Positions 5,948 to 53,508 of a stretch of DNA of 64,000 nucleotides are shown piece by piece (within the stretch, counting starts at the first letter, position 1; every line of letters begins with the position of its first letter). The position numbers and the translations under genes are program-made. The stretch lies in sequence record OP557969.1. The stretch is one strand, 5' to 3'. This DNA comes from Escherichia phage ph0011. The notes under the pieces are model-generated. The model saw only the letters and a program-made list of their open reading frames with translations. It did not search any database and had not been told where the DNA came from.

Positions 5948-6442
5948 TTATTTTGTATCTCTTTTTACATCAACCATGTTTAATTTACCGTCCTTAATTA
6001 GCTTTCTAGCTTGTTTTACACGAGCAGTAGTGTTGCTACCAGGGACGACACCTAACCCTTCCAGAATTGCGTTTTGCTGCGTTGCTGGAAGCCTTTTAAA
6101 CTTATTCACATCTACTGTTAGTGCTGTGTGATGTATCACTTGCTCTTCTAGTGGGATGTTGTTGTTCTTTTCAAGATAATCTGCCAGATTTCTTAGAACT
6201 TCATGTAAAGGCATATCAGTTAAATGCTTTCCATATCGGTTCCATGCGTTGGAAACTTTACCTTCAAATGCGTTTATTTCATTCTGTAGAACTTCACGAC
6301 AGTGTTGGTTACCATAGTGGTAGTGATCCAGTACTGGTTTAGTTATTGGTTCCTTAATTATAGGATCAATTCCTTTTTGCTTCTTTAGTAATTCATTACG
6401 ATAGTTTGCAGCTTCTTTACTATCTTTTAATCTTTTCTTCAT
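5948..6442 (-). CDS. Free-standing HNH / endonuclease VII-like nuclease (putative homing endonuclease)
   Basis: Motif LDHYHYGNQHCREVLQNEINAFEG fits the DHxH...N...G pattern of EndoVII/HNH nucleases; lone minus-strand gene between conserved genes; late-promoter-like ATAAATAT upstream on the minus strand. Confidence 0.45.
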   Translation of the reverse strand: MKKRLKDSKEAANYRNELLKKQKGIDPIIKEPITKPVLDHYHYGNQHCREVLQNEINAFEGKVSNAWNRYGKHLTDMPLHEVLRNLADYLEKNNNIPLEEQVIHHTALTVDVNKFKRLPATQQNAILEGLGVVPGSNTTARVKQARKLIKDGKLNMVDVKRDTK

Positions 6443-6536
6443 AAATCCCCACCAAACTAATTTTTATAAAAATATTTATGAGTTACATTAGAGAACAATA
6501 ATTATGTGTTTTTTGATAAATAAATTTAAATTATTT

Positions 6537-6564
6537 GAGACAACTTTGAAGTTTGTGCTATAAT
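6537..6564 (+). promoter_or_regulatory. Sigma70-type promoter: GAGACA, 16-nt spacer, TGTGC-TATAAT (6559..6564); no annotated gene downstream
   Basis: Same conserved motif as the other five promoters; A/T-rich upstream region. Confidence 0.5.
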
Positions 6565-7015
6565 GTTTGATGTAGTAATGACAATCCTGTTGAATGCAGA
6601 AATGCATATAAATTAGAACCTGATCCTATCGAAAATGTAGATGGCAGATGAGCAGTTCAACAGTGCGATGAGCAGAAGAAACCCGTCAGAAGTGGGCATA
6701 GTTTGAACCCCTCACGGCAATGCGGCTCAATAAAGAACTCCGATAAGCACACAGAGAGTTCCTAGATAGACATATAAGGAATCACACCTTACCAGATTTG
6801 CTAAGGGAGTTTATTAATTGATTTTAATAAACAGCCTGAAGTTTGATTGTATAGACTTTCAGGTGAGTGCTGGGATGAAAAGACCAGTGACCGTTGCATA
6901 TGACCGTGATAGGGAGAAACAGAGCAACCCGCTTCCGTTTGTGATTGATCATTTTTACAATATAGATCCGTCCAAAATTCACGATACAATAAATGCTGAA
7001 ACCATCAGCGTCAAG

Positions 7016-7040
7016 AAGAGACTTAATTGTCTCTTTTTTA
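7016..7040 (+). terminator. Rho-independent terminator closing the orphan transcription unit
   Basis: Hairpin AGAGAC-TTAATT-GTCTCT followed by TTTTTT. Confidence 0.55.
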
Positions 7041-7255
7041 TTACTTTCATTCCCCTGTGGGGGGATGAAAATGTCCTCAACAAATCCCGTCAAGTTTTAA
7101 ATCTTTAAAAGTTCTTTCTAAATTAATTTAATGAAATGAATATGAGTTACGTAGTAACGAATATTCTTCAGGTAACGAATGAAATGAGTTAGCTGAATCC
7201 AATATATTAAAATTAATCTTTCATAATTCAATTCAAATAATTCTGTAGTTTAAAA

Positions 7256-7285
7256 ACAAAAAACCAGCAACAATGTGCTGGTAAT
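7256..7285 (-). terminator. Rho-independent terminator of the minus-strand operon 8339..7294
   Basis: On the minus strand: CCAGCA-CATTGT-TGCTGG followed by TTTTTT. Confidence 0.55.
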
Positions 7286-7293
7286 TATGTGAT

Positions 7294-7503
7294 TTAGTGC
7301 TTCTCGTTTTGTTTTTTAATTTTCTTATTAAAAGACTTAACTAATAAGTCTCTATCTATTAAAGGCATATTAAGAAGTGTTCCATAGTCAATATTATCCA
7401 TATAAACAGAACACTCCATTAGTGCTTGTTTGATTTCTGACTTATTCAGTTCTATCTCCCTTATGACTTCTTGTATTTCTTCAGGAGTTGACTGGAGAAG
7501 CAT
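7294..7503 (-). CDS. Hypothetical protein (69 aa)
   Basis: ORF in track; its start codon overlaps the stop of the upstream gene. Confidence 0.3.
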   Translation of the reverse strand: MLLQSTPEEIQEVIREIELNKSEIKQALMECSVYMDNIDYGTLLNMPLIDRDLLVKSFNKKIKKQNEKH

Positions 7504-8339
7504 TACTCGAAAAAATGACTAGGATCATATTTTAGTCCATCAATTTCCCATTGATGATTACAGTTACTACATTCAACTTCCATAGTATGGGAGACACCAA
7601 TCTCAAGTACTTCATCCATTTTTTCACGAATTAGTTTAAGAACTCCCTTCGATTGTTGACCGAGCCATTCATTAATAAATTCCTTTTCAACTACTTCATC
7701 ACCGTCTGGTGTTATAATTTTTGCAATAACTCCACCAATCATATCAAAATTAAGTTGAGCCATACTTTCAAAAACTTCTGAAAATATTTTTACTTTTTCA
7801 TCATTGTCAATATCAGCAGTTTCAAGAAACTTGGTTTTTTGTTGTTCGTTGAACATGCGTTCTGCAAAAGATGAATATTCTTTCCATGTAAGTGGTTTAA
7901 ATTCCAAACGTAGACCGTTATCCAAATCAACAGAAGGAATTTCACTAAATGATTTCGCAGTTTCAAGTAGATATGATAGATTACGCTCAAAGCGTCCCTC
8001 TTTTTCACATTCAGGACATACTACGTTAATGTCATATGTTTCTTCTTTCGAAGCAACTTTAATTGCAATAAGAAGCATTTCAACGTCATTTACATATAGT
8101 TCATCTGCATCAATTACATTCGGAACACAGTTCTCAATCACACGTGATACTGCATCACCATTTAGTAGCATATCTGGTGTATTCAGTGTCATTTCATCAC
8201 GTGCACTACGTGCACAAACTCCGCACTTGACACCTTTTGGTCCTAGTACTCCATCTTTATAAGGAATAACGCCGTTTGTAACCAACTTAGTACTGATCTC
8301 TTCAATTTTAGTGTACTTAGCAAGTGGATTCATAGCCAT
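7503..8339 (-). CDS. Zinc-ribbon protein (three CxxC pairs); possibly baseplate-hub related by position
   Basis: The track ORF extends to 8444, but the likely start is MAMNPL at 8339. CxxC motifs: CGVCARS, CPECEK, CSNCNH. Divergent from the tape-measure-like gene. Confidence 0.35.
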   Translation of the reverse strand: MAMNPLAKYTKIEEISTKLVTNGVIPYKDGVLGPKGVKCGVCARSARDEMTLNTPDMLLNGDAVSRVIENCVPNVIDADELYVNDVEMLLIAIKVASKEETYDINVVCPECEKEGRFERNLSYLLETAKSFSEIPSVDLDNGLRLEFKPLTWKEYSSFAERMFNEQQKTKFLETADIDNDEKVKIFSEVFESMAQLNFDMIGGVIAKIITPDGDEVVEKEFINEWLGQQSKGVLKLIREKMDEVLEIGVSHTMEVECSNCNHQWEIDGLKYDPSHFFE

Positions 8340-15571: not shown

Positions 15572-16747
15572 ATGTCACAACTACTAAATGAATCCAAATG
15601 GGTAGCAGTAAAAGAGAAACTAGTTGAAGGTCTACAGGGTACTCGTAAGTCTGTAATGGAAACTGTTCTTGATAACCATCGTAAAGTTATGCTAACTGAA
15701 TCTGCAACTTCTGGTGCAACTACTGCTGGTAACATCGCTACTCTAAACAAAGTGATTCTACCAATTATGCGTCGTGTAATGCCAACTGTTATTGCGAACG
15801 AAATTATCGGTGTTCAACCAATGACTGGTCCAGTTGGTCAGATTCACACCCTACGTGTGCAATATGCTGATAATGCACCTGGTGTTATTGCTGGTGAAGA
15901 AATGCTTTCTCCATACAAAATTGCAAAATCCTACTCTGGTGAACTAAATTCTGATAATAGCAACCCACAAGCTGCTCCTACTAGTCAACTAGAAGGTACT
16001 ATGGGTCGTCGCGTAAATATCCGTATCCTACGTGAAACTGTTGAAGCGAAATCACGTCGTCTATCTGCACGTTGGACTGTTGAATCTGCACAAGATGCAC
16101 AATCTCAACATGGTGTTGATGTTGAAGCTGAACTAATGGCAGCAATTGCACAAGAAGTTACTGTAGAAATCGACCAAGAACTACTAAGCCGTCTACGTGC
16201 ACTACCAGGTGCTGCTGCTGTAACTTATGACCAATCTAAAGTTACCGGTGTTGCAACTTTCGTAGGTGATGAACACGCTGCTCTAGCTACCCTAATCAAC
16301 CGTCAAGCTAACGAAGTTGCTCGTCGTACCAAGCGTGGTGCAGCAAACTGGGCCGTTGTTTCCCCAACTGCTCTAACCATTCTACAGTCTGCAACTACTT
16401 CTAGCTTTGCACGTACCACTGAAGGTACTTTTGAAGCACCAACTAACGTTAAGTTTGTAGGTACTCTAAACAGCACCATGCGTATCTTTGTTGATACCTA
16501 TGCAAGTGATTCTGAAGATATCCTAATTGGTTATAAAGGTAATGCTGAAACTGATGCTGGTGTATTCTATTGCCCATACATCCCACTAATGGCATCCGGT
16601 ACTGTTATGGACCCTAACACTGGTGAATTGGTTACAACTTTCCTAACTCGTTATGGTTACGTACAATTGACCGACAGCACTTCCTCTCTTGGTAACGCTG
16701 CTGACTACTATAGCAAAATCGCTATCAAAAACGTTACTTTCATGTAA
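15572..16747 (+). CDS. 23: Major capsid protein gp23-like
   Basis: Conserved blocks IANEIIGVQPMTGPVGQ, VEAKSRRLSARW and IGYKGNAETDAGVFYCPY match the T4 gp23/gp24 family as recalled from memory. Confidence 0.85.
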   Translation: MSQLLNESKWVAVKEKLVEGLQGTRKSVMETVLDNHRKVMLTESATSGATTAGNIATLNKVILPIMRRVMPTVIANEIIGVQPMTGPVGQIHTLRVQYADNAPGVIAGEEMLSPYKIAKSYSGELNSDNSNPQAAPTSQLEGTMGRRVNIRILRETVEAKSRRLSARWTVESAQDAQSQHGVDVEAELMAAIAQEVTVEIDQELLSRLRALPGAAAVTYDQSKVTGVATFVGDEHAALATLINRQANEVARRTKRGAANWAVVSPTALTILQSATTSSFARTTEGTFEAPTNVKFVGTLNSTMRIFVDTYASDSEDILIGYKGNAETDAGVFYCPYIPLMASGTVMDPNTGELVTTFLTRYGYVQLTDSTSSLGNAADYYSKIAIKNVTFM

Positions 16748-16790
16748 TTATAATCGATTTAAAAAAATAATCAAGAAATTAAAAACAAAA

Positions 16791-16819
16791 AGGGACTCTG
16801 ATGAGTCCCTTTTCTTTTA
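16791..16819 (+). terminator. Rho-independent terminator after the capsid gene
   Basis: AGGGACTC-TGAT-GAGTCCCT followed by a T-tract. Confidence 0.65.
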
Positions 16820-16889
16820 TCTAAATATTGACAAACAGTACTGAAACATGTTATGCTTATGTAAATATAGTAACTATAGAGGAATTTAA

Positions 16890-18488
16890 ATGCTTGGTGA
16901 AATCAAACAGTTTTTGAAGACGAAAAAGTTAAGAGGTGTAAAATCTGCACTTCAAGCAAAACCATTATATGTTGATTACTTAAAAGAAATTTATGGTGAT
17001 ATCGAACTGAATGTTATCATTTACATGGTATTGAATGATATTAAAGAAATTCCAAAAGCAAAATGTGGTAACGATGTAAAGTTTGTTAATTTAATTGAGG
17101 GATTCAGTGACAGATGTAATCTACCGTTTCAGGGAAAAAATAAATGTAAAGTTTGTTCTGTAATGATTTCTGAAAAAAGAAAAAGTACATACAAGAATAA
17201 AACTGGGTATGATAATCCCGGACAGAATCCAGACGTTCGTGACAAGATGTCAAGAACTAATATTAATCGTTACGGAACTACTGTTCCCCAGCAGACCGAT
17301 GTTGTCAAAAAACGTTCAATTGAGACAAATCTTCTTAAGTACGGAGTTGAACATCCCTCAATGTTGGAAGAAAACAAAGAGAAACGCCAAAAAACTGTTT
17401 TTGAAAAGTATGGTGTAGATAATGTACTTAAAACTACACATAAACGCCTTGAAGAACGTTATATGAATTTCAAGAAAAAATATGAATATTCTGGAAAATA
17501 TACATTACTTAGTTCAATTGAAGAGTATGATTCTTCTGTTAATGGTGTTAAAAGTATTCTTTTATGGAAATGTAATACTTGCAACAATACTTTCAATAAA
17601 GTTGCACCGTGTTTAAGATGTCCTAAATGTGAACCATACTCTTCCAGTACTGAAGAAGTTGAATTATATGAATATATTTCATCAATCTATGACGGTGTAA
17701 TTATCCAGAATAGTAGGAATATTATCACAGGTAATGAGATTGATATTTTCATTCCAGAACTGAAACTTGGTATTGAGTTCAATGGTGAGTACTGGCACAG
17801 AGACGAAGTGCGTGGTAATAATTATCATCAGAGCAAATATATTCGTATGAAGGAAAATGGCAACAAACTTATTACTATATATAGTAATGAATGGCGTAAT
17901 AAAACTGACATCGTTAAGCGTAGATTAAAAAGCATTTTAAATACTGATAATAGAGTGTACGCTCGTAAGTGTACTATCGGTTTAGTTCAGAATGATGTAT
18001 GTGATGAGTTTTTGAATACATATCATATACAGGGTAAGTGTAGTTCTTCGATTCGCGTAGGTCTGTATTTGGAAACAGAACTTGTTGCAGTAATGACATT
18101 CGGTAAACCAAGATTTAACAAAGAATATGAATATGAACTACTCCGTTATTGTTCCAAAGATACAGTGGTTGGTGGTGCTTCAAAACTGTTAAAATATTTC
18201 GAAATTACACATGTTCCAAAATCTTTGATATCTTATGCTGATATGAATTGGAGTTCTGGTAATCTATATGAAGCAATTGGATTTCAATTTGTTGAAATGA
18301 CGAAACCTGGATATTTCTATTATGATAAAAAAACAGAAACCACATATTCCAGATACCAATGTCAAAAGCAAAAACTAATATCAAAGTTTGGATTTCCTAA
18401 CACAATGACAGAGAATGAAATGACACGATCACTTGGTTATTACAAAATATATGATTGTGGTAATTTAGTATATAAAAAAGAATACTAA
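16890..18488 (+). CDS. Large free-standing nuclease-like protein, paralog 1 (putative homing endonuclease)
   Basis: N-terminal Cys cluster, repeated (R/K)YGV(E/D) module, central DIFIPELKLGIEFNGEYWH motif resembling Vsr/DUF559 PD-(D/E)xK cores, conserved C-terminal domain; paralog of 51760..53508. Confidence 0.45.
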   Translation: MLGEIKQFLKTKKLRGVKSALQAKPLYVDYLKEIYGDIELNVIIYMVLNDIKEIPKAKCGNDVKFVNLIEGFSDRCNLPFQGKNKCKVCSVMISEKRKSTYKNKTGYDNPGQNPDVRDKMSRTNINRYGTTVPQQTDVVKKRSIETNLLKYGVEHPSMLEENKEKRQKTVFEKYGVDNVLKTTHKRLEERYMNFKKKYEYSGKYTLLSSIEEYDSSVNGVKSILLWKCNTCNNTFNKVAPCLRCPKCEPYSSSTEEVELYEYISSIYDGVIIQNSRNIITGNEIDIFIPELKLGIEFNGEYWHRDEVRGNNYHQSKYIRMKENGNKLITIYSNEWRNKTDIVKRRLKSILNTDNRVYARKCTIGLVQNDVCDEFLNTYHIQGKCSSSIRVGLYLETELVAVMTFGKPRFNKEYEYELLRYCSKDTVVGGASKLLKYFEITHVPKSLISYADMNWSSGNLYEAIGFQFVEMTKPGYFYYDKKTETTYSRYQCQKQKLISKFGFPNTMTENEMTRSLGYYKIYDCGNLVYKKEY

Positions 18489-18516
18489 AATACATTATTG
18501 AAACAAGGAGGTTTCG

Positions 18517-18867
18517 GTGTTAACTGTATATATTTTTAAGAAAGAAGAGTACTTAAAGAGTCAGTACTCTAAAATTGAGATTAACGTTCCCTATGGAACA
18601 TTGGTTGGTTATGACGAATCTAGCGAAACCTTGTTTTATAATGATGATAAACTTGACTATAGCATTGATTCATTTATTGAAGATATACTTGATAGTAATA
18701 CAGAAGATATGTTGTATGAAGAATACTTAGATGCGTACAGAGAACGTATGTCAAAGTTACATGCTGATGCTCCAGTACTAAACATTACGCAAAAACCTTC
18801 TGAATTTGAACCACATAATCCGTTTCAACGTTTAATTGATATTGGTTTAAAATTCACTATTAATTGA
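18517..18867 (+). CDS. Hypothetical protein (116 aa)
   Basis: GTG start preceded by a strong AAGGAGG ribosome-binding site. Confidence 0.35.
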   Translation: MLTVYIFKKEEYLKSQYSKIEINVPYGTLVGYDESSETLFYNDDKLDYSIDSFIEDILDSNTEDMLYEEYLDAYRERMSKLHADAPVLNITQKPSEFEPHNPFQRLIDIGLKFTIN

Positions 18868-18906
18868 TAGATAAATATCTCCATATTAATGATGGAGATT
18901 GAATCT

Positions 18907-19215
18907 ATGTCACAAATATGTTATGTTATCATAAATTCTGCGTGGCCTGATTATGTTAAGATTGGGTTCACATCAAAATCCGAAATGACTGAGCGTTTGA
19001 GAACATATCAGACAGCTACACCTTTCAGAGATTTTGAGGTATACCATGAGGTGTATTTTGATGATGCACGTTTGGCTGAAAAAGAAATTCATAAAAGACT
19101 AAAGCAAATGAATGCAATTAGACAACCGAACACTGAGTGGTTTAAAATGTCTAAAAAGATCGCCGCAAACATTATTGACTCCATAAGGGATGATATGGAT
19201 AATGATATGTTATAG
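18907..19215 (+). CDS. T5orf172 / GIY-YIG-like domain protein
   Basis: Pattern CYVIIN...YVKIGFTS...RL..YQT...EWFK fits the T5orf172 domain consensus; GGAG precedes the ATG at 18907 (the track ORF starts at 18889). Confidence 0.45.
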   Translation: MSQICYVIINSAWPDYVKIGFTSKSEMTERLRTYQTATPFRDFEVYHEVYFDDARLAEKEIHKRLKQMNAIRQPNTEWFKMSKKIAANIIDSIRDDMDNDML

Positions 19216-28959: not shown

Positions 28960-35278
<6,319 letters not shown>

Positions 35279-38959: not shown

Positions 38960-41539
38960 ATGAAAATTTGTAAGTTAACTTTATTGGATGAGGTGAATTG
39001 TAAATTTGAGGGACTAGATCCCTCAATTCGACAAAAGATGATTCGTGCAACTGAATATGTGCTACCATATGCAAAGTTTACACCAGCAGGTCGTATTGGG
39101 CGTTGGGATGGTAAAGTACAATTCATGAACTTAGGTGGAAGCACATACTTTCATATGCTTGATAAACTTTTACCTATTCTTGACGAAGCTAATATTGATA
39201 TTGAATTAGAAGATCATAGACTAAATTACGGTTTCGAATTTGAACCAATTGATGAAAATATTTTTAGCGATGTTGTTTTTGGTCCTGGACACCACATGGA
39301 AGGTAAAAGTATTATCCTACGTGAACATCAGGTAAATGCAGTAAATTCGTGTTTAGCTAACCCACATGGGTTGGTTCTGGCAGCAACTGGTGCAGGAAAA
39401 GCCCAGCCACTTGATGAACCAGTTCTTACCATTAATGGATGGAAACGAATGGGTGACATAAAAGTTGGCGATATAGTAAAATGTCCTGATGGAACAAATG
39501 CTCCCGTCCTTGGTGTATATCCACAGGGAATTAAACCAACAGTACGAATGACATTCTCGGATGGACGAAGTGTCGAATGTTGTGATGAACATTTATGGAA
39601 TATATATAGTATTGCTGGTGAAAAAAACCCTGAAAAACGATGGAGAAACCTTTCTGTTAAAGAAATCATTGAATTACAAAATAAACAAAAACGTCCAGTA
39701 TATATTAAAACAATCACTGGTGATATTTTTGAAGAAAAAGAATTACCAATACATCCATATATTTTAGGTGTATTACTCGGTGATGGATGTTTAAGAAATG
39801 GTAATATAATGTTATCAAGTTCAGATGAATTTGTTATTGATAAGGTATCTTCATTATTACCTGATGGTTATATTATCAAGAAAAAACAATCATCAAAATA
39901 TGATTATAGTATTGTCATGGATGATACAAAAAAGAAAGAATATTTATGTAAAAATAATAAAGAAAGATATAACGAACTTAGGGTTATTTTGGAAGAACTT
40001 GGAATTTATAATAAGTATTCATATGAAAAGTTTATCCCTGAAATTTACAAAATGTCATCAATTGAACAACGTCTGCAACTCATTCAAGGATTAATTGACA
40101 CGGATGGTTATGTTGATAAAAGATTAAAAAACGGAAAGTCCCGAAATGTGGTGGAATTTTGTAGTACATCAGAAAAATTGGTTGATGATTTGAAAGATAT
40201 AATGAATAGTTTAGGTGGTTACGGTATTAAAAAATCTAAACAAACTTATTATACCTATGCAGGGGTAAAACAAAAAGGTCGCCCAAGTTTTAAAATGAGA
40301 ATTGATTATAATAATCTTAATGCCTTGGCTAGTTTACCTCGCAAAAAAGACTTTTTATATTCAGAAAGAAATCGTGTTGAAAATAAACTAAAAATTGAAA
40401 AAATTGAATATATTGAAGATAAAGAATGTCAATGTATCTATATTGATCATCCAGAACATCTATATATTACCAGAGATTATATCGTAACACACAATACAAT
40501 TATTTGTGCTGCTTTGGCGAAATCGGTACAAAAATATGGACGTTCTGTTATCATTGTCCCCAGCACTGACCTAGTACAACAAACATATGATGATTACATT
40601 ATGTGTGGATTAGATGCTGGTATGTTCTATGGTGCACAGAAAGATTTTGGTCATCAACATACTATTACTACTTGGCAATCATTTAACTCTCTATGGAAGA
40701 AAACCAAAAAAGGTGAAATTGAATTAACAGAACAAGACGTAAATGATTTTATTGATGGGGTAGTTTGTGTTATAGTTGATGAGTGTCAAGGTGCTGGTGG
40801 TGATGCATTAGTTCAAGTACTATCTAAAGTTATGAACAACGTACCATTGCGTTGGGGTCTTACTGGTACAATTCCGAAAGATCCGGTTGTTGCAGCGAAA
40901 ATCAAATGTAATGTTGGTGATGTTATATATAAAATCACTGCAAAGGAATTACAAGATAAAAAGATACTAAGTACATGTAATGTGAATTGCATTAAACTAA
41001 AAAGTAGTATGAAGTTTGCATCATATGCTGAAGAGTTGAAATACTTAGTAACTGACAGAGATAGAATGGCATATGTAGCGTCATTGATATCTGCGTTATC
41101 TGAATCAGGAAACACTTTAGTTTTAGTAGATAGACTTGAAGCAGGTGAGTTGCTATGTGAATTTTTAGGCATTCCCAAATCAGAATTCGTTCGTGGAGAA
41201 ACTAAAAAGAAAGATCGAGAATCATCTTATGGTGAAATTCGTTGGGCTGATAATAAAATACTTATTGCGACATACGGCGTTGCCAGTACTGGTATCAGTA
41301 TTTCAAGGCTATACAATGTAGTATTGATTGAACCTGGAAAAAGTTTCGTAAGAACTATACAATCAATCGGACGTGGATTACGCCGTGCTGAAGACAAAGA
41401 CCATGTTGAAATATATGACATTAGTGGTTCTAATAAGTATAGTGCAAAGCATTTACGTGAGCGTCTCGCTTACTATAAGGAAGCACAATATCCTCATACA
41501 GTAATAGACGTTAAAGATTGGGAAAACACAGCGGGATAA
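38960..41539 (+). CDS. uvsW: UvsW helicase containing an intein
   Basis: Exteins resemble T4 UvsW as recalled from memory (RIGRWDGKV; LAATGAGK | TIICAALAKS...IIVPSTDL; ATYGVASTGISI); 859 aa including a 365-aa insertion. Confidence 0.8.
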   Translation: MKICKLTLLDEVNCKFEGLDPSIRQKMIRATEYVLPYAKFTPAGRIGRWDGKVQFMNLGGSTYFHMLDKLLPILDEANIDIELEDHRLNYGFEFEPIDENIFSDVVFGPGHHMEGKSIILREHQVNAVNSCLANPHGLVLAATGAGKAQPLDEPVLTINGWKRMGDIKVGDIVKCPDGTNAPVLGVYPQGIKPTVRMTFSDGRSVECCDEHLWNIYSIAGEKNPEKRWRNLSVKEIIELQNKQKRPVYIKTITGDIFEEKELPIHPYILGVLLGDGCLRNGNIMLSSSDEFVIDKVSSLLPDGYIIKKKQSSKYDYSIVMDDTKKKEYLCKNNKERYNELRVILEELGIYNKYSYEKFIPEIYKMSSIEQRLQLIQGLIDTDGYVDKRLKNGKSRNVVEFCSTSEKLVDDLKDIMNSLGGYGIKKSKQTYYTYAGVKQKGRPSFKMRIDYNNLNALASLPRKKDFLYSERNRVENKLKIEKIEYIEDKECQCIYIDHPEHLYITRDYIVTHNTIICAALAKSVQKYGRSVIIVPSTDLVQQTYDDYIMCGLDAGMFYGAQKDFGHQHTITTWQSFNSLWKKTKKGEIELTEQDVNDFIDGVVCVIVDECQGAGGDALVQVLSKVMNNVPLRWGLTGTIPKDPVVAAKIKCNVGDVIYKITAKELQDKKILSTCNVNCIKLKSSMKFASYAEELKYLVTDRDRMAYVASLISALSESGNTLVLVDRLEAGELLCEFLGIPKSEFVRGETKKKDRESSYGEIRWADNKILIATYGVASTGISISRLYNVVLIEPGKSFVRTIQSIGRGLRRAEDKDHVEIYDISGSNKYSAKHLRERLAYYKEAQYPHTVIDVKDWENTAG
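39401..40495 (+). mobile_element. Intein (365 aa) with LAGLIDADG homing-endonuclease domain in the UvsW Walker A
   Basis: Begins AQPLDEPVLT directly after GAGK and ends YIVTHN before Thr+1; LAGLIDADG motifs ILGVLLGDG and LIQGLIDTDGY; homologous to the terminase intein. Confidence 0.75.
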
Positions 41540-51085: not shown

Positions 51086-51760
51086 ATGAATTACGAATAT
51101 GATCAACAATCCGTTAATCAGATGGCAGATTTATTAAGTGGTCTTAATGATATTGAAGCTGGTGAAACACATAATGCCGCAGGTGTTCCATATAAAGCAA
51201 GTGGTGATATTGGTGCAATGACTGCAATTTTAACTTCATTAAATGAAGCTGGAATGGATTACGGTACTGATCCAGAGAAGATTCATCCGAACGTTGTGCC
51301 ATACAATGCACCATTCAATGAACACATGAATGGACAACAATCTACCATTCAGCCATATAGTCAACCATCTAAGCCGAAAACTAATTGGAGCTTAGTAGAA
51401 GAAAAAGTTCAAGGAACTAAATCTACCAAAGTGTATAGTATCAAGTGTAATCATAGTTCACAGATTATTATGAATAATATTATGATGTATGAAGCTGCAC
51501 TTACATTAGTTAATCTTTTGAATGAAGGACGAATGTTGACAGATGCAAAACTCCTTGGTATAATTAGTTCTGGATTACAATACACAAATGTAATCAGTGA
51601 GGCATTAAAAGCTGCTCAAAGGCGACAACGTGTTCTTAATGAATCAAAGTATGATGAAGCAAAAGAATTAGATATAATTATTGCAGAAAAGAAAGCAGAA
51701 GCTTATAAATTGAAAGAGCGTGTATTGAACTTTCTTAAAAATGAAGGGTATATTACCTGA
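51086..51760 (+). CDS. Hypothetical protein (224 aa)
   Basis: ORF in track. Confidence 0.3.
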   Translation: MNYEYDQQSVNQMADLLSGLNDIEAGETHNAAGVPYKASGDIGAMTAILTSLNEAGMDYGTDPEKIHPNVVPYNAPFNEHMNGQQSTIQPYSQPSKPKTNWSLVEEKVQGTKSTKVYSIKCNHSSQIIMNNIMMYEAALTLVNLLNEGRMLTDAKLLGIISSGLQYTNVISEALKAAQRRQRVLNESKYDEAKELDIIIAEKKAEAYKLKERVLNFLKNEGYIT

Positions 51761-53508
51761 TGTTAGATGAATTGAAGAAATTCTTAAAAAGCAAAAACAA
51801 AAAAACATGGGTTAAGTTGGTAAACAATAATGAATTATATTTTAAATATGTTCGTGAATTGTTCCCAACTAAACCAATGAATGAAGCATTGTATCTTATC
51901 ATGAATGACATGGTGCGTGCACCATCTGCCCCATGTGGTTCTGAATGTAAATTTATTAATGGTTCATATGATAAGTATTGTTCTAAGCCTACAAAACCAA
52001 ACAAAAATCGTGATAATGGGTTTTGTGTAGTATGTAATGAGCATTGGAAGCAAAACAAACTCAAAAATACTAAACAAAAATGTCTTGATGTTTATGGTGT
52101 CGAACATCATTGGCAAAGAAATGATGTAAAAGATAAAATAAAAAGTACTAATATGAAACGATATGGTGTTGAACACAATTCACACGTCGAACATGTACTT
52201 GAAAAAAGAAAGGAAACTTTCATTGAAAGATATGGTGTTGAATCACCGTTATCATCTGTTGAAATTCGTGATAAGATAAAAGCAACAAACATTGCAAAAT
52301 ATGGTGTTGAAAATTATGGAAGTACATGTGAATGTATCGAAAAACGAAATAAAACAATGCAAGAATTATATGGTTTTAGTAATGCACAACATGTAAAGAA
52401 GTTTTCAAATGAATCAAAGATTACTAAATCTAAAATAAGATATGATAAAATTTTATCTATTATTAACCCTTCATATAAAGAACTGTTTGAATATGATGAC
52501 TTGATAGATTCAACCAATGAAAGTAAACTTCCGTACTATTGTGAAATACACAAAGGACTGTTTTATAGTAATTATAAATATGGTATAGTTTGTGATGTTT
52601 GCAACCCACCTGTATATAGTTCAATACAAAATGAAATAAAAAACTTTGTATCAACATTGACTGAATGTAACATTATCATGAATGATAGAAGTAATGGGTA
52701 TGAGTATGATATATACATCCCTGAACTTCAGATAGCAATAGAAGTCAATGGAATGTATTGGCATAAAAGTGATATGGTTGATAAGTATTACCATAGAACA
52801 AAAACAATAAATTCGATAGAACGTGGGATTAGATTGATACATATCTTTGAAGATGAATGGTACTGTAAACAGGAAATTATTAAAAATAGATTAATGAATG
52901 TTTTTCAGTGTTCTAGAAAGATTTATGCCAGAAAATGTATTGTTAAAAAAATTAACACTAATATTTGTTATGATTTCTTAAACACTAATCATATACAAGG
53001 ATATACTAAATCTGGAATAAACTATGGTTTGTTTTATAATCAAGAATTGATTGCAGTAATGACGTTCGGAAAAAGTCGATATGATAAAAAATTTGAATAT
53101 GAACTAATACGATACTGCTCACGTGGAACTGTTGTTGGTGGTGCTAGTAAATTATTGTCTGCATTTGAGCGTGAATACAAACCATTGTCGTTGATGAGTT
53201 ACGCTGACTTGAATTGGGGGTCAGGACAGTTATACATATCTCTTAACTTTGAAAATTTAGGATACACAGAACCCAAATATTTTTATTATGATCCAAAAAC
53301 AAAACAGCGTTTTTCTAGACATAAATTTAGAAAACATAAATTAATTGAAATGGGCTACGACTCATCTAAAACTGAAGAAGATATATGCTTAGGTGAAATT
53401 GGATTGTATAAAATATACGATTCTGGTAATTGCAAATTTGCTAAATATTATTACAACACAAACATTACAGGAGATATTGAAAAATGTCCAAATCGTACAA
53501 AAAACTAA
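51760..53508 (+). CDS. Large free-standing nuclease-like protein, paralog 2 (putative homing endonuclease)
   Basis: Same architecture as 16890..18488: N-terminal Cys cluster, YGV repeats, YDIYIPELQIAIEVNGMYWH motif, conserved C-terminal YELIRYCS...VVGGASKLL. Confidence 0.45.
   Translation: MLDELKKFLKSKNKKTWVKLVNNNELYFKYVRELFPTKPMNEALYLIMNDMVRAPSAPCGSECKFINGSYDKYCSKPTKPNKNRDNGFCVVCNEHWKQNKLKNTKQKCLDVYGVEHHWQRNDVKDKIKSTNMKRYGVEHNSHVEHVLEKRKETFIERYGVESPLSSVEIRDKIKATNIAKYGVENYGSTCECIEKRNKTMQELYGFSNAQHVKKFSNESKITKSKIRYDKILSIINPSYKELFEYDDLIDSTNESKLPYYCEIHKGLFYSNYKYGIVCDVCNPPVYSSIQNEIKNFVSTLTECNIIMNDRSNGYEYDIYIPELQIAIEVNGMYWHKSDMVDKYYHRTKTINSIERGIRLIHIFEDEWYCKQEIIKNRLMNVFQCSRKIYARKCIVKKINTNICYDFLNTNHIQGYTKSGINYGLFYNQELIAVMTFGKSRYDKKFEYELIRYCSRGTVVGGASKLLSAFEREYKPLSLMSYADLNWGSGQLYISLNFENLGYTEPKYFYYDPKTKQRFSRHKFRKHKLIEMGYDSSKTEEDICLGEIGLYKIYDSGNCKFAKYYYNTNITGDIEKCPNRTKN

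Follow-up and report, generated by a model that had tools for sequence, protein, structure and literature searches.

The genome of Escherichia phage ph0011 (sequence record OP557969.1) was analysed over a stretch of 64,000 nucleotides (the window), in which two genes, at 16890..18488 and 51760..53508, very probably represent free-standing homing endonuclease genes of the Hef family, each inserted in an intergenic spacer. The first (copy 1) follows the major capsid gene and encodes a protein of 532 amino acids (aa); the second (copy 2), 35 kb away, encodes a paralog of 582 aa. The assignment is based on near full-length homology to a studied Hef protein, on membership of PHROG 3339, and on a profile match to the homing endonuclease I-Bth0305I in which the catalytic residues are aligned. 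Copy 1 and the two smaller genes that follow it (16890-19215) had previously been interpreted, in a reading made from the letters only (the sequence-only reading), as an island of selfish cargo. That view holds for copy 1 and its paralog, which are members of the Hef family and cleanly inserted when compared with PBECO4 and over 30 further relatives, and has to be abandoned for the two smaller genes, which are syntenic core genes. The finding is real but ordinary, in that it adds two further Hef-like members in a jumbo coliphage.

Assignment to the Hef family

PHROG 3339, annotated as 'homing endonuclease', matches both proteins from end to end (5e-136 for copy 1 and 1.4e-136 for copy 2). In a BLASTP comparison copy 1 is 31% identical to the Hef protein of the T4-like phage U5, with which it is colinear over residues 37-529 (E = 7e-46). 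A passage of PMC2988022 describes Hef as an endonuclease that cuts nrdB beside its own gene, and Hef-type enzymes have been placed together with I-Bth0305I in the EDxHD, or Vsr-like, family (PMC3239194). A tblastn search of phage genomes returned 415 records, the hef gene of U5 among the matches; many of these carry the label 'Hef-like homing endonuclease', and in Campylobacter phages they occur in up to 11 places per genome. The Hef-like family also includes at least 1,995 metagenomic members. The sequence-only reading had named copy 2 as a paralog of copy 1, and rightly so, as the two proteins are 37% identical over 544 columns (E = 9e-107); no third Hef-family copy is present within the 64-kb window. 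Pfam recognizes DUF7487 (5e-23) and MTES_1575 (1e-4) in copy 2. From PADLOC only a weak 'homing endonuclease' model matched the Hef copies, and an NCBIfam search of four proteins (both Hef copies and the small neighbouring proteins of 116 and 108 aa) gave no matches.

Domain organization of the Hef-family proteins

The three open reading frames (ORFs) and the capsid terminator upstream of them lie where they had been placed, and the cysteine cluster (C59/C76/C86/C89), the YGV repeats and the FNGEYWH core that had been noticed in the large protein are all real (Table 1). The AlphaFold2 (AF2) model of the 532-aa protein has a mean predicted local distance difference test score (pLDDT) of 90.9. 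Conservation was counted across 122 aligned family members. In the N-terminal module C59, C76 and C86 are each conserved in 118-119 of these. The DUF7487 region that follows consists of repeats of approximately 23 residues with the pattern 'K.K.T..E.YGV', each ending in '(K/R)YG(V/T)' and each modelled by AF2 as one long helix. Copy 1 has three or four such repeats (3 by motif count), whereas the motif count for copy 2 is 6 (52060-52420); homologs have between 0 and 15, the longer proteins having more (r = 0.81). This pattern suggests that the repeats form a modular array that expands and contracts, and the array is presumed to bind DNA; a literature search for 'DUF7487' found no paper.

The repeats are followed by a zinc ribbon, whose four cysteines are conserved in 111-116 of the homologs, and by a Vsr-like PD-(D/E)XK nuclease domain with the core 'IEFNGEYWH' at residues 295-303 of copy 1. 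The catalytic residues of this domain are near-invariant across the family and intact in the window proteins, which have the Vsr-like domain and the Asp/Glu/His catalytic set by which EDxHD homing endonucleases are recognized. When a profile of the nuclease domain was compared with the PDB, I-Bth0305I (3r3p) was the sole match (E = 5e-8), with its catalytic D196 aligned to D285 of copy 1 and its catalytic H213 to H303. Profile searches had been named by the sequence-only reading as a check on the three proteins; they bear out T5orf172 for the third gene and, by comparison with the PDB, the EDxHD nuclease for the first, while NUMOD domains were found in none of the 532-aa, 116-aa and 108-aa proteins. 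The C-terminal part of the protein is a Mom-like domain, which is also its most conserved part: mean pairwise identity there reaches 49%, compared with 45% in the nuclease, 32% in the repeats and 21.5% in the N-terminal region.

Insertion sites and turnover of the capsid-downstream slot

The window belongs to the group of Asteriusvirus-like jumbo coliphages (121Q, PBECO4, UE-S1 and others), with 84-89% nucleotide identity by megablast, and the phage is no close relative of T4. The earlier remark that the genes are absent from this position in T4 is correspondingly uninformative; T4, moreover, has segD directly after gene 23. By blastn the window is colinear with PBECO4 save for four insertions (16819-18517, 31461-32477, 39401-40506 and 51754-53481), the first and last of which contain the Hef-family genes.

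The left edge of the first insertion is marked by the terminator hairpin of the capsid gene, which is kept in all aligned relatives, insert-bearing or empty. In PBECO4 and fEgEco12 the 116-aa ORF starts approximately 40 nucleotides (nt) after this terminator, the slot being empty and both small genes being kept, so that a comparison with insertion-free relatives, as had been proposed, defines the empty site for the 532-aa gene. In 121Q, Turkey3, A4 and vB_Ec-M-J the same slot is occupied by an unrelated gene of 365 aa that combines a T5orf172 nuclease domain with zinc fingers of DUF4379/DUF723/CapR-like type (121Q gp604, L002 2895-3992), and in Sharanji (L019 1388-2305) and Munch (gp284, L009 6354-7268) by a 305-aa version of the zinc-finger/T5orf172 type. 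The slot is accordingly found in at least four states (empty, 305-aa, 365-aa and Hef-type). UE-S1 is the sole relative with a Hef-type gene here, encoding a protein 66% identical to copy 1, and a copy-1-type gene occurs in 1 of 63 related records. The insert contains a promoter-like site that is the top scorer of the region (10 of 12 matches) as judged by consensus match alone, and the total count of promoter-like sites in the region is not above the shuffled expectation.

Where PBECO4 and 121Q have a spacer of 33 nt between two genes for virion proteins, the window has copy 2, which overlaps both of its neighbours, its start lying on the upstream stop and its end on the downstream start. Among 49 matching records only UE-S1 has this copy, and more than 30 show a gap of approximately 1.7 kb. 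Both Hef copies are precise insertions in intergenic spacers that are missing in most relatives, and such presence/absence polymorphism of a free-standing gene at an intergenic site is a mark of Hef-like elements. Endonuclease genes of at least two unrelated families have repeatedly settled in the spacer behind the capsid gene. This recurrent use of one site helps to account for mosaicism in these genomes and can guide the annotation of Asteriusvirus genomes.

With regard to the surroundings of copy 2, UE-S1 has an annotated left terminal repeat of 8.3 kb, whose end (record position 8298, L017 4340) lies approximately 130 bp downstream of the copy 2 ortholog (6419-8170).

Selection, divergence and flanking mosaicism

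Relative to UE-S1, the ratio of nonsynonymous to synonymous substitution (omega) is 0.17 for copy 1 and 0.12 for copy 2, indicating purifying selection; these values together with the near-invariant catalytic residues are evidence that the Hef-type genes encode functional proteins. Synonymous divergence (dS) from UE-S1 is 0.28 for copy 2 and 0.44-0.90 for its flanking genes, a modest signal that would fit copy 2 having spread after the backbones had diverged. For copy 1 dS is approximately 1.65, with 0.12-0.29 for the capsid and scaffold genes and 0.75-1.5 for the genes of the right flank. The flank is also mosaic in its affinities. Over its first ~300 nt (18518-18817) the 116-aa ORF shares 87-90% identity with the fEgEco12/Turkey3 clade but only 78-82% with PBECO4, 121Q and UE-S1, and beyond ~18820 the affinity is reversed, with 89-95% identity to PBECO4, 121Q and UE-S1 (window to 18900). 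The switch near 18820 marks a recombination junction beside the endonuclease gene, and junctions of this kind have been described next to homing endonuclease genes (PMC10448857).

Proposed mobility mechanism

By analogy with Hef and I-Bth0305I, mobility would begin in a cell infected at once by the phage and by a relative without the gene. The protein would bind DNA near the empty site, presumably by means of its variable N-terminal Cys4/DUF7487 array and possibly also of the Mom-like domain, and the Vsr-like domain (D285/E296/H303) would then cut the DNA. Recombinational repair from the endonuclease-bearing genome would copy the gene, along with some of its flank, into the recipient.

Several points weigh against this interpretation. 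Sandegren et al. 2005 reportedly rated homing of hef as 'most likely', without having demonstrated it, and Hef is said, from the same work, to have cut the DNA of its own phage as well. Copy 1 and its UE-S1 counterpart are so diverged (66% identity, dS ~1.65, with the right flank likewise diverged) that independent acquisition accounts for them equally as well as an old shared insertion. The strong conservation of the Mom-like domain is unexpected for a module that serves purely in target specificity, and leaves room for an enzymatic role. Finally, it is directly observed that the proteins belong to the family and have an intact catalytic set, that the insertions are polymorphic and that the flank is mosaic, and it is by analogy that homing itself and a target site would be added to them.

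It is also conceivable, and we consider it unlikely, that the nucleases are domesticated and immobile and are kept for the benefit of the phage, be it in excluding co-infecting relatives, in degrading host DNA or in stimulating recombination. Purifying selection on both copies (omega 0.12-0.17), the tight integration of copy 2, which overlaps both neighbours, and the promoter-like site that copy 1 has of its own would all be in keeping with such a role. The patchy distribution (copy 2 in 1 of 49 and the copy-1-type gene in 1 of 63 related records) and the turnover of other endonuclease families in the same slot speak for mobile genes instead, and as marker exclusion and homing are mechanistically one act, the difference is mostly one of emphasis.

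The C-terminal Mom-like domain

The closest structure to the C-terminal GNAT-fold domain in a Foldseek search of the PDB is Mom of phage Mu (8bv8, E = 3.6e-6, 192 columns aligned). An hhalign comparison with the Mom-family profile gives a probability of 93.6% (E = 2e-7), and PHROG 1384, 'Mom-like', matches at 1.5e-8. A sequence profile of the domain had no match in the PDB, the link to Mom being one of fold and profile-profile comparison alone. The shortest phage homologs consist of the nuclease and the Mom-like domain, matching query residues ~244-531.

Mom of Mu moves glycine from Gly-tRNA onto the N6 of adenine, and N6-carbamoylmethyl-adenine in DNA is the product by which the Mom family is recognized; the key residues of Mom include H58, R111, S124, D149, R151 and Y159, and the mutants S124A and R151A are inactive (PMC13219725). 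In the profile alignment the equivalent of Mom R111 (R419) is invariant, those of H58 (H379), E108 (E416, in 118 of the 122 family members) and Y159 (Y460) vary little or not at all, the equivalent of D149 (D451) is Asp in 99 of the 122, and W48 has its counterpart in a Phe. At the position of the catalytic S124 the column is variable (D424 here; Leu, Ile, Gly, Cys or Lys elsewhere), and the invariant P-x-N-x-E-S (PRNSES) loop of Mom is deleted in the Hef-family domain. The equivalent of R151 is Arg in 67-82 of the 122, but copy 1 has M452/N453 at this point and copy 2 has Leu/Asn. Mom also has a helix-turn-helix (HTH)-like insertion (residues 175-209) that is required for activity, and the profile alignment stops near Mom residue 180. 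Because S124 with its loop and R151 are missing, momylation by the Mu mechanism is unlikely for this domain. It is an integral and strongly constrained unit of the family, and since the residues S124 and R151, essential in Mom, are missing, it most probably either binds nucleic acid or has a conserved activity other than that of Mom.

The Mom-like domain is central to another reading of these proteins, in which they would form a fused restriction-modification-like module, the Mom-like domain hypermodifying the adenines of the phage itself, by momylation or an acylation akin to it, and the restriction endonuclease (REase) domain destroying unmodified DNA of the host or of competitors. The model is explicit in Iyer et al. 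2021 (PMC7824862), where Mom-REase fusions are reported from group 2 jumbo phages, a restriction-modification-like role is predicted for them, and 'five momylating enzymes' are counted in one phage. The Hef-like family has the same combination of nuclease and Mom-like GNAT domain as this 'Mom-REase fusion', the two being likened by domain combination and not by accession; a full-text literature search found no paper linking 'Hef-like' endonucleases with a GNAT domain. The homology of the C-terminal domain to Mom, its rank as the most conserved domain with many invariant Arg, His, Glu, Tyr and Lys residues, and the retention of R419, Y460, H379 and, in most members, D451 agree with such a module. 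The variable S124 column, the loss of the PRNSES loop and the replacement of R151 in both copies do not, and the prototype Hef acts as a site-specific endonuclease that cuts beside its own gene. Insertion polymorphism in spacers, divergent multiple copies and a slot that is common to other homing families are traits of homing genes, and the sole PADLOC match is to a 'homing endonuclease' model. On balance a restriction-modification module is quite improbable here, and the Hef-type homing endonuclease remains the preferred interpretation.

There is a slim chance that the Mom-like GNAT domain is active by way of an active site other than that of Mom, chemically marking the phage's own target sites or the DNA that serves as substrate for cutting. 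If this were true, Hef-type elements would be hybrids, homing endonucleases that double as single-chain restriction-modification enzymes with built-in modification or immunity, and the literature on homing endonucleases would be reconciled with the 'momylase-REase' prediction of Iyer et al. The function of a domain that is the most conserved of the protein, yet lacks the key catalytic residues of Mom, is what remains of interest in these elements.

The two small neighbouring genes

All the relatives that were inspected, including PBECO4, fEgEco12, Munch and fENko-Kae01, have the 116-aa ORF and the T5orf172 gene between the genes for the capsid and the tail fibre; in the window the three ORFs are followed by the tail-fibre gene and then a tail-fibre assembly gene. 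The 116-aa protein is 25% identical to its Munch counterpart (E = 9e-15), and its family comprises 12 protein clusters, all of the present phage lineage. Its omega is approximately 0.11, and it starts with GTG here and with ATG in all aligned relatives. The AF2 model of this protein is poor (pLDDT 58). In the fENko-Kae01 record its ortholog is without the note 'identified with LC-MS/MS' (liquid chromatography with tandem mass spectrometry) that is borne by the capsid and tail-fibre proteins.

The third gene had been called T5orf172-like, and Pfam agrees (3.9e-13, 50.2 bits against a cutoff of 20). The domain takes up residues 10-99 of the 108-aa protein, and the Pfam scan found no further domain and no zinc-finger DNA-binding module in it. 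As background, 87% of T5orf172 homing endonucleases bear CapR/DUF723/DUF4379 zinc fingers (PMC10448857). Alignments with its orthologs begin at residue 7, and translation may therefore really start at 18907. The protein is 75% identical to its Munch ortholog, and 62 phage records each have one ortholog of at least 60% identity, 63 records sharing the capsid region. A patchy, mobile distribution was not seen for this gene, which is single-copy and syntenic in the ~62 related records. Compared with UE-S1 it has a saturated dS of approximately 1.5, 94% amino-acid identity and an omega of 0.019, being constrained like the capsid protein. PADLOC offers generic T5orf172-containing defence candidates.

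Because both small genes are retained with the empty slot and in distant phages, are single-copy and have low omega, they are, on comparative sequence evidence, ancestral core genes bordering an insertion hotspot and not cargo. That all three genes form one selfish island is very improbable: they are adjacent, T5orf172 is a GIY-YIG subfamily used by many phage homing endonucleases, and all three have a high dS relative to UE-S1, unlike the capsid gene, but genes 2 and 3 are retained in empty-slot phages as well as in genera further removed, ~62 relatives have a single T5orf172 gene each, this gene has an omega of 0.019 and no DNA-binding domain, and the boundary of the insertion lies upstream of the start of the 116-aa ORF. 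The sequence-only reading had itself named ancestral genes, syntenically conserved in relatives, as the outcome that would speak against cargo, and this is what was found for both.

Table 1. Positions of the Hef-family genes, their predicted domains and the features around them in the 64,000-nt window
Feature	Position	Strand	Residues	Basis or detail
Gp23-type major capsid gene	15572..16747			Pfam Gp23, 5.5e-90
Capsid-gene terminator hairpin, left edge of insertion site	16788..16813	+		11 pairs, then T-run (terminator scan)
First inserted segment, ~1.7 kb (Hef copy 1 plus a spacer of its own on either side)	16819..18517	+		blastn gap versus PBECO4; empty-site alignments, PBECO4 and fEgEco12
Sigma-70-like promoter inside the insert	16828..16857	+		TTGACA-18 nt-TATGCT, TG before -10; 33 nt upstream of Hef start
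Hef copy 1 gene (predicted), 532 aa	16890..18488	+		PHROG 3339, BLASTP to U5 Hef, AF2
N-terminal helices and Cys4 module	16890..17171	+	1-94	C59, C76, C86, C89
DUF7487 helical '...K.K.T..E.YGV' repeats	17172..17489	+	95-200	Pfam PF24308, 1.2e-13
Zinc ribbon CxxC...CxxC before nuclease	17571..17630	+	228-247	C228/C231/C244/C247
Vsr-like PD-(D/E)XK 'EDxHD' nuclease	17646..17936	+	253-349	E283, D285, E296, H303, H313, K316
Mom-like GNAT-fold domain	17946..18485	+	353-532	Foldseek, hhalign, PHROG 1384
116-aa ORF, GTG start, bordering the insertion but outside it	18517..18867	+		Found in empty-slot relatives
108-aa T5orf172 (GIY-YIG superfamily) single-domain protein	18889..19215	+		Pfam T5orf172
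Second inserted segment, ~1.7 kb	51754..53481	+		blastn gap versus PBECO4; boundaries borne out by junction alignments
Hef copy 2 gene (predicted), 582 aa	51760..53508	+		PHROG 3339, Pfam

Inteins elsewhere in the window

The other two insertions relative to PBECO4 are LAGLIDADG inteins, one in the large subunit of the terminase and one in a helicase-like gene. The terminase intein (31461-32477) interrupts the Walker A motif (ARQMGK / intein / TTVAAAF). PBECO4 and 121Q lack it, whereas UE-S1 has it with 95.7% nucleotide identity. At ~31455 (junction 31452-31456) the window has one extra C, reading ATGCGGAAAA versus 'ATG-GGTAAG' in UE-S1, where the allele is in frame. The extra C splits the frames into an N-extein ORF (31193..31495) and an ORF for the intein and C-extein (31470..33854). 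Either this C is an artefact of sequencing, or an essential gene is truly frameshifted. The second intein, of approximately 365 aa (39401-40506), lies within the ORF 38960..41539, in frame after the Walker A 'GAGK' of the helicase-like protein, and is likewise absent from PBECO4.

Comparison with known systems

The closest known system to the window proteins is Hef of U5, together with F-LimIII/VII/VIII/X of LIMEstone1 and the copies of the Campylobacter phages CP220 and CP81. The order of domains is shared (an N-terminal Cys module with YG repeats, a Vsr-like nuclease and a Mom-like domain), as is the location of a free-standing gene between conserved genes (nrdA and nrdB in U5), and the family is multi-copy in many phages. 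The window copies differ in their sites, one behind the capsid gene and the other between genes for two virion proteins, in retaining a second zinc ribbon that aligns poorly with Hef, and in the Mom-like domain, where the Arg pair of 'NRRW' is replaced by 'DMNW' or 'DLNW'.

The EDxHD prototype I-Bth0305I, whose nuclease domain resembles that of copy 1 in its catalytic residues, is an intron-encoded enzyme of 266 aa with N-terminal NUMOD2/HTH repeats and a C-terminal nuclease, whereas the window proteins are free-standing, have DUF7487 repeats and zinc modules, and bear an extra 180-aa Mom-like domain after the nuclease. Compared with Mom itself, the domain has a classical GNAT 'V-G-G-A-x-K-L-L' motif where Mom has 'SRAISYALK', and is fused to a nuclease whereas Mom stands alone.

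The zinc-finger/T5orf172 homing endonucleases (of the ICP1/T5 type; 121Q gp604 and Munch gp284) occupy exactly the same slot as copy 1 and have the same ecological role, but are of unrelated architecture with a GIY-YIG-type nuclease; in a single BLASTP comparison with the window protein one short and weak match was obtained (113 columns, 25%, E = 1e-4). The segD gene of T4 (L016 3062-3733) is similar to copy 1 in being a free-standing homing endonuclease gene directly after the major capsid gene, and differs in belonging to the GIY-YIG family, in lying on the opposite strand and in residing in another phage lineage.

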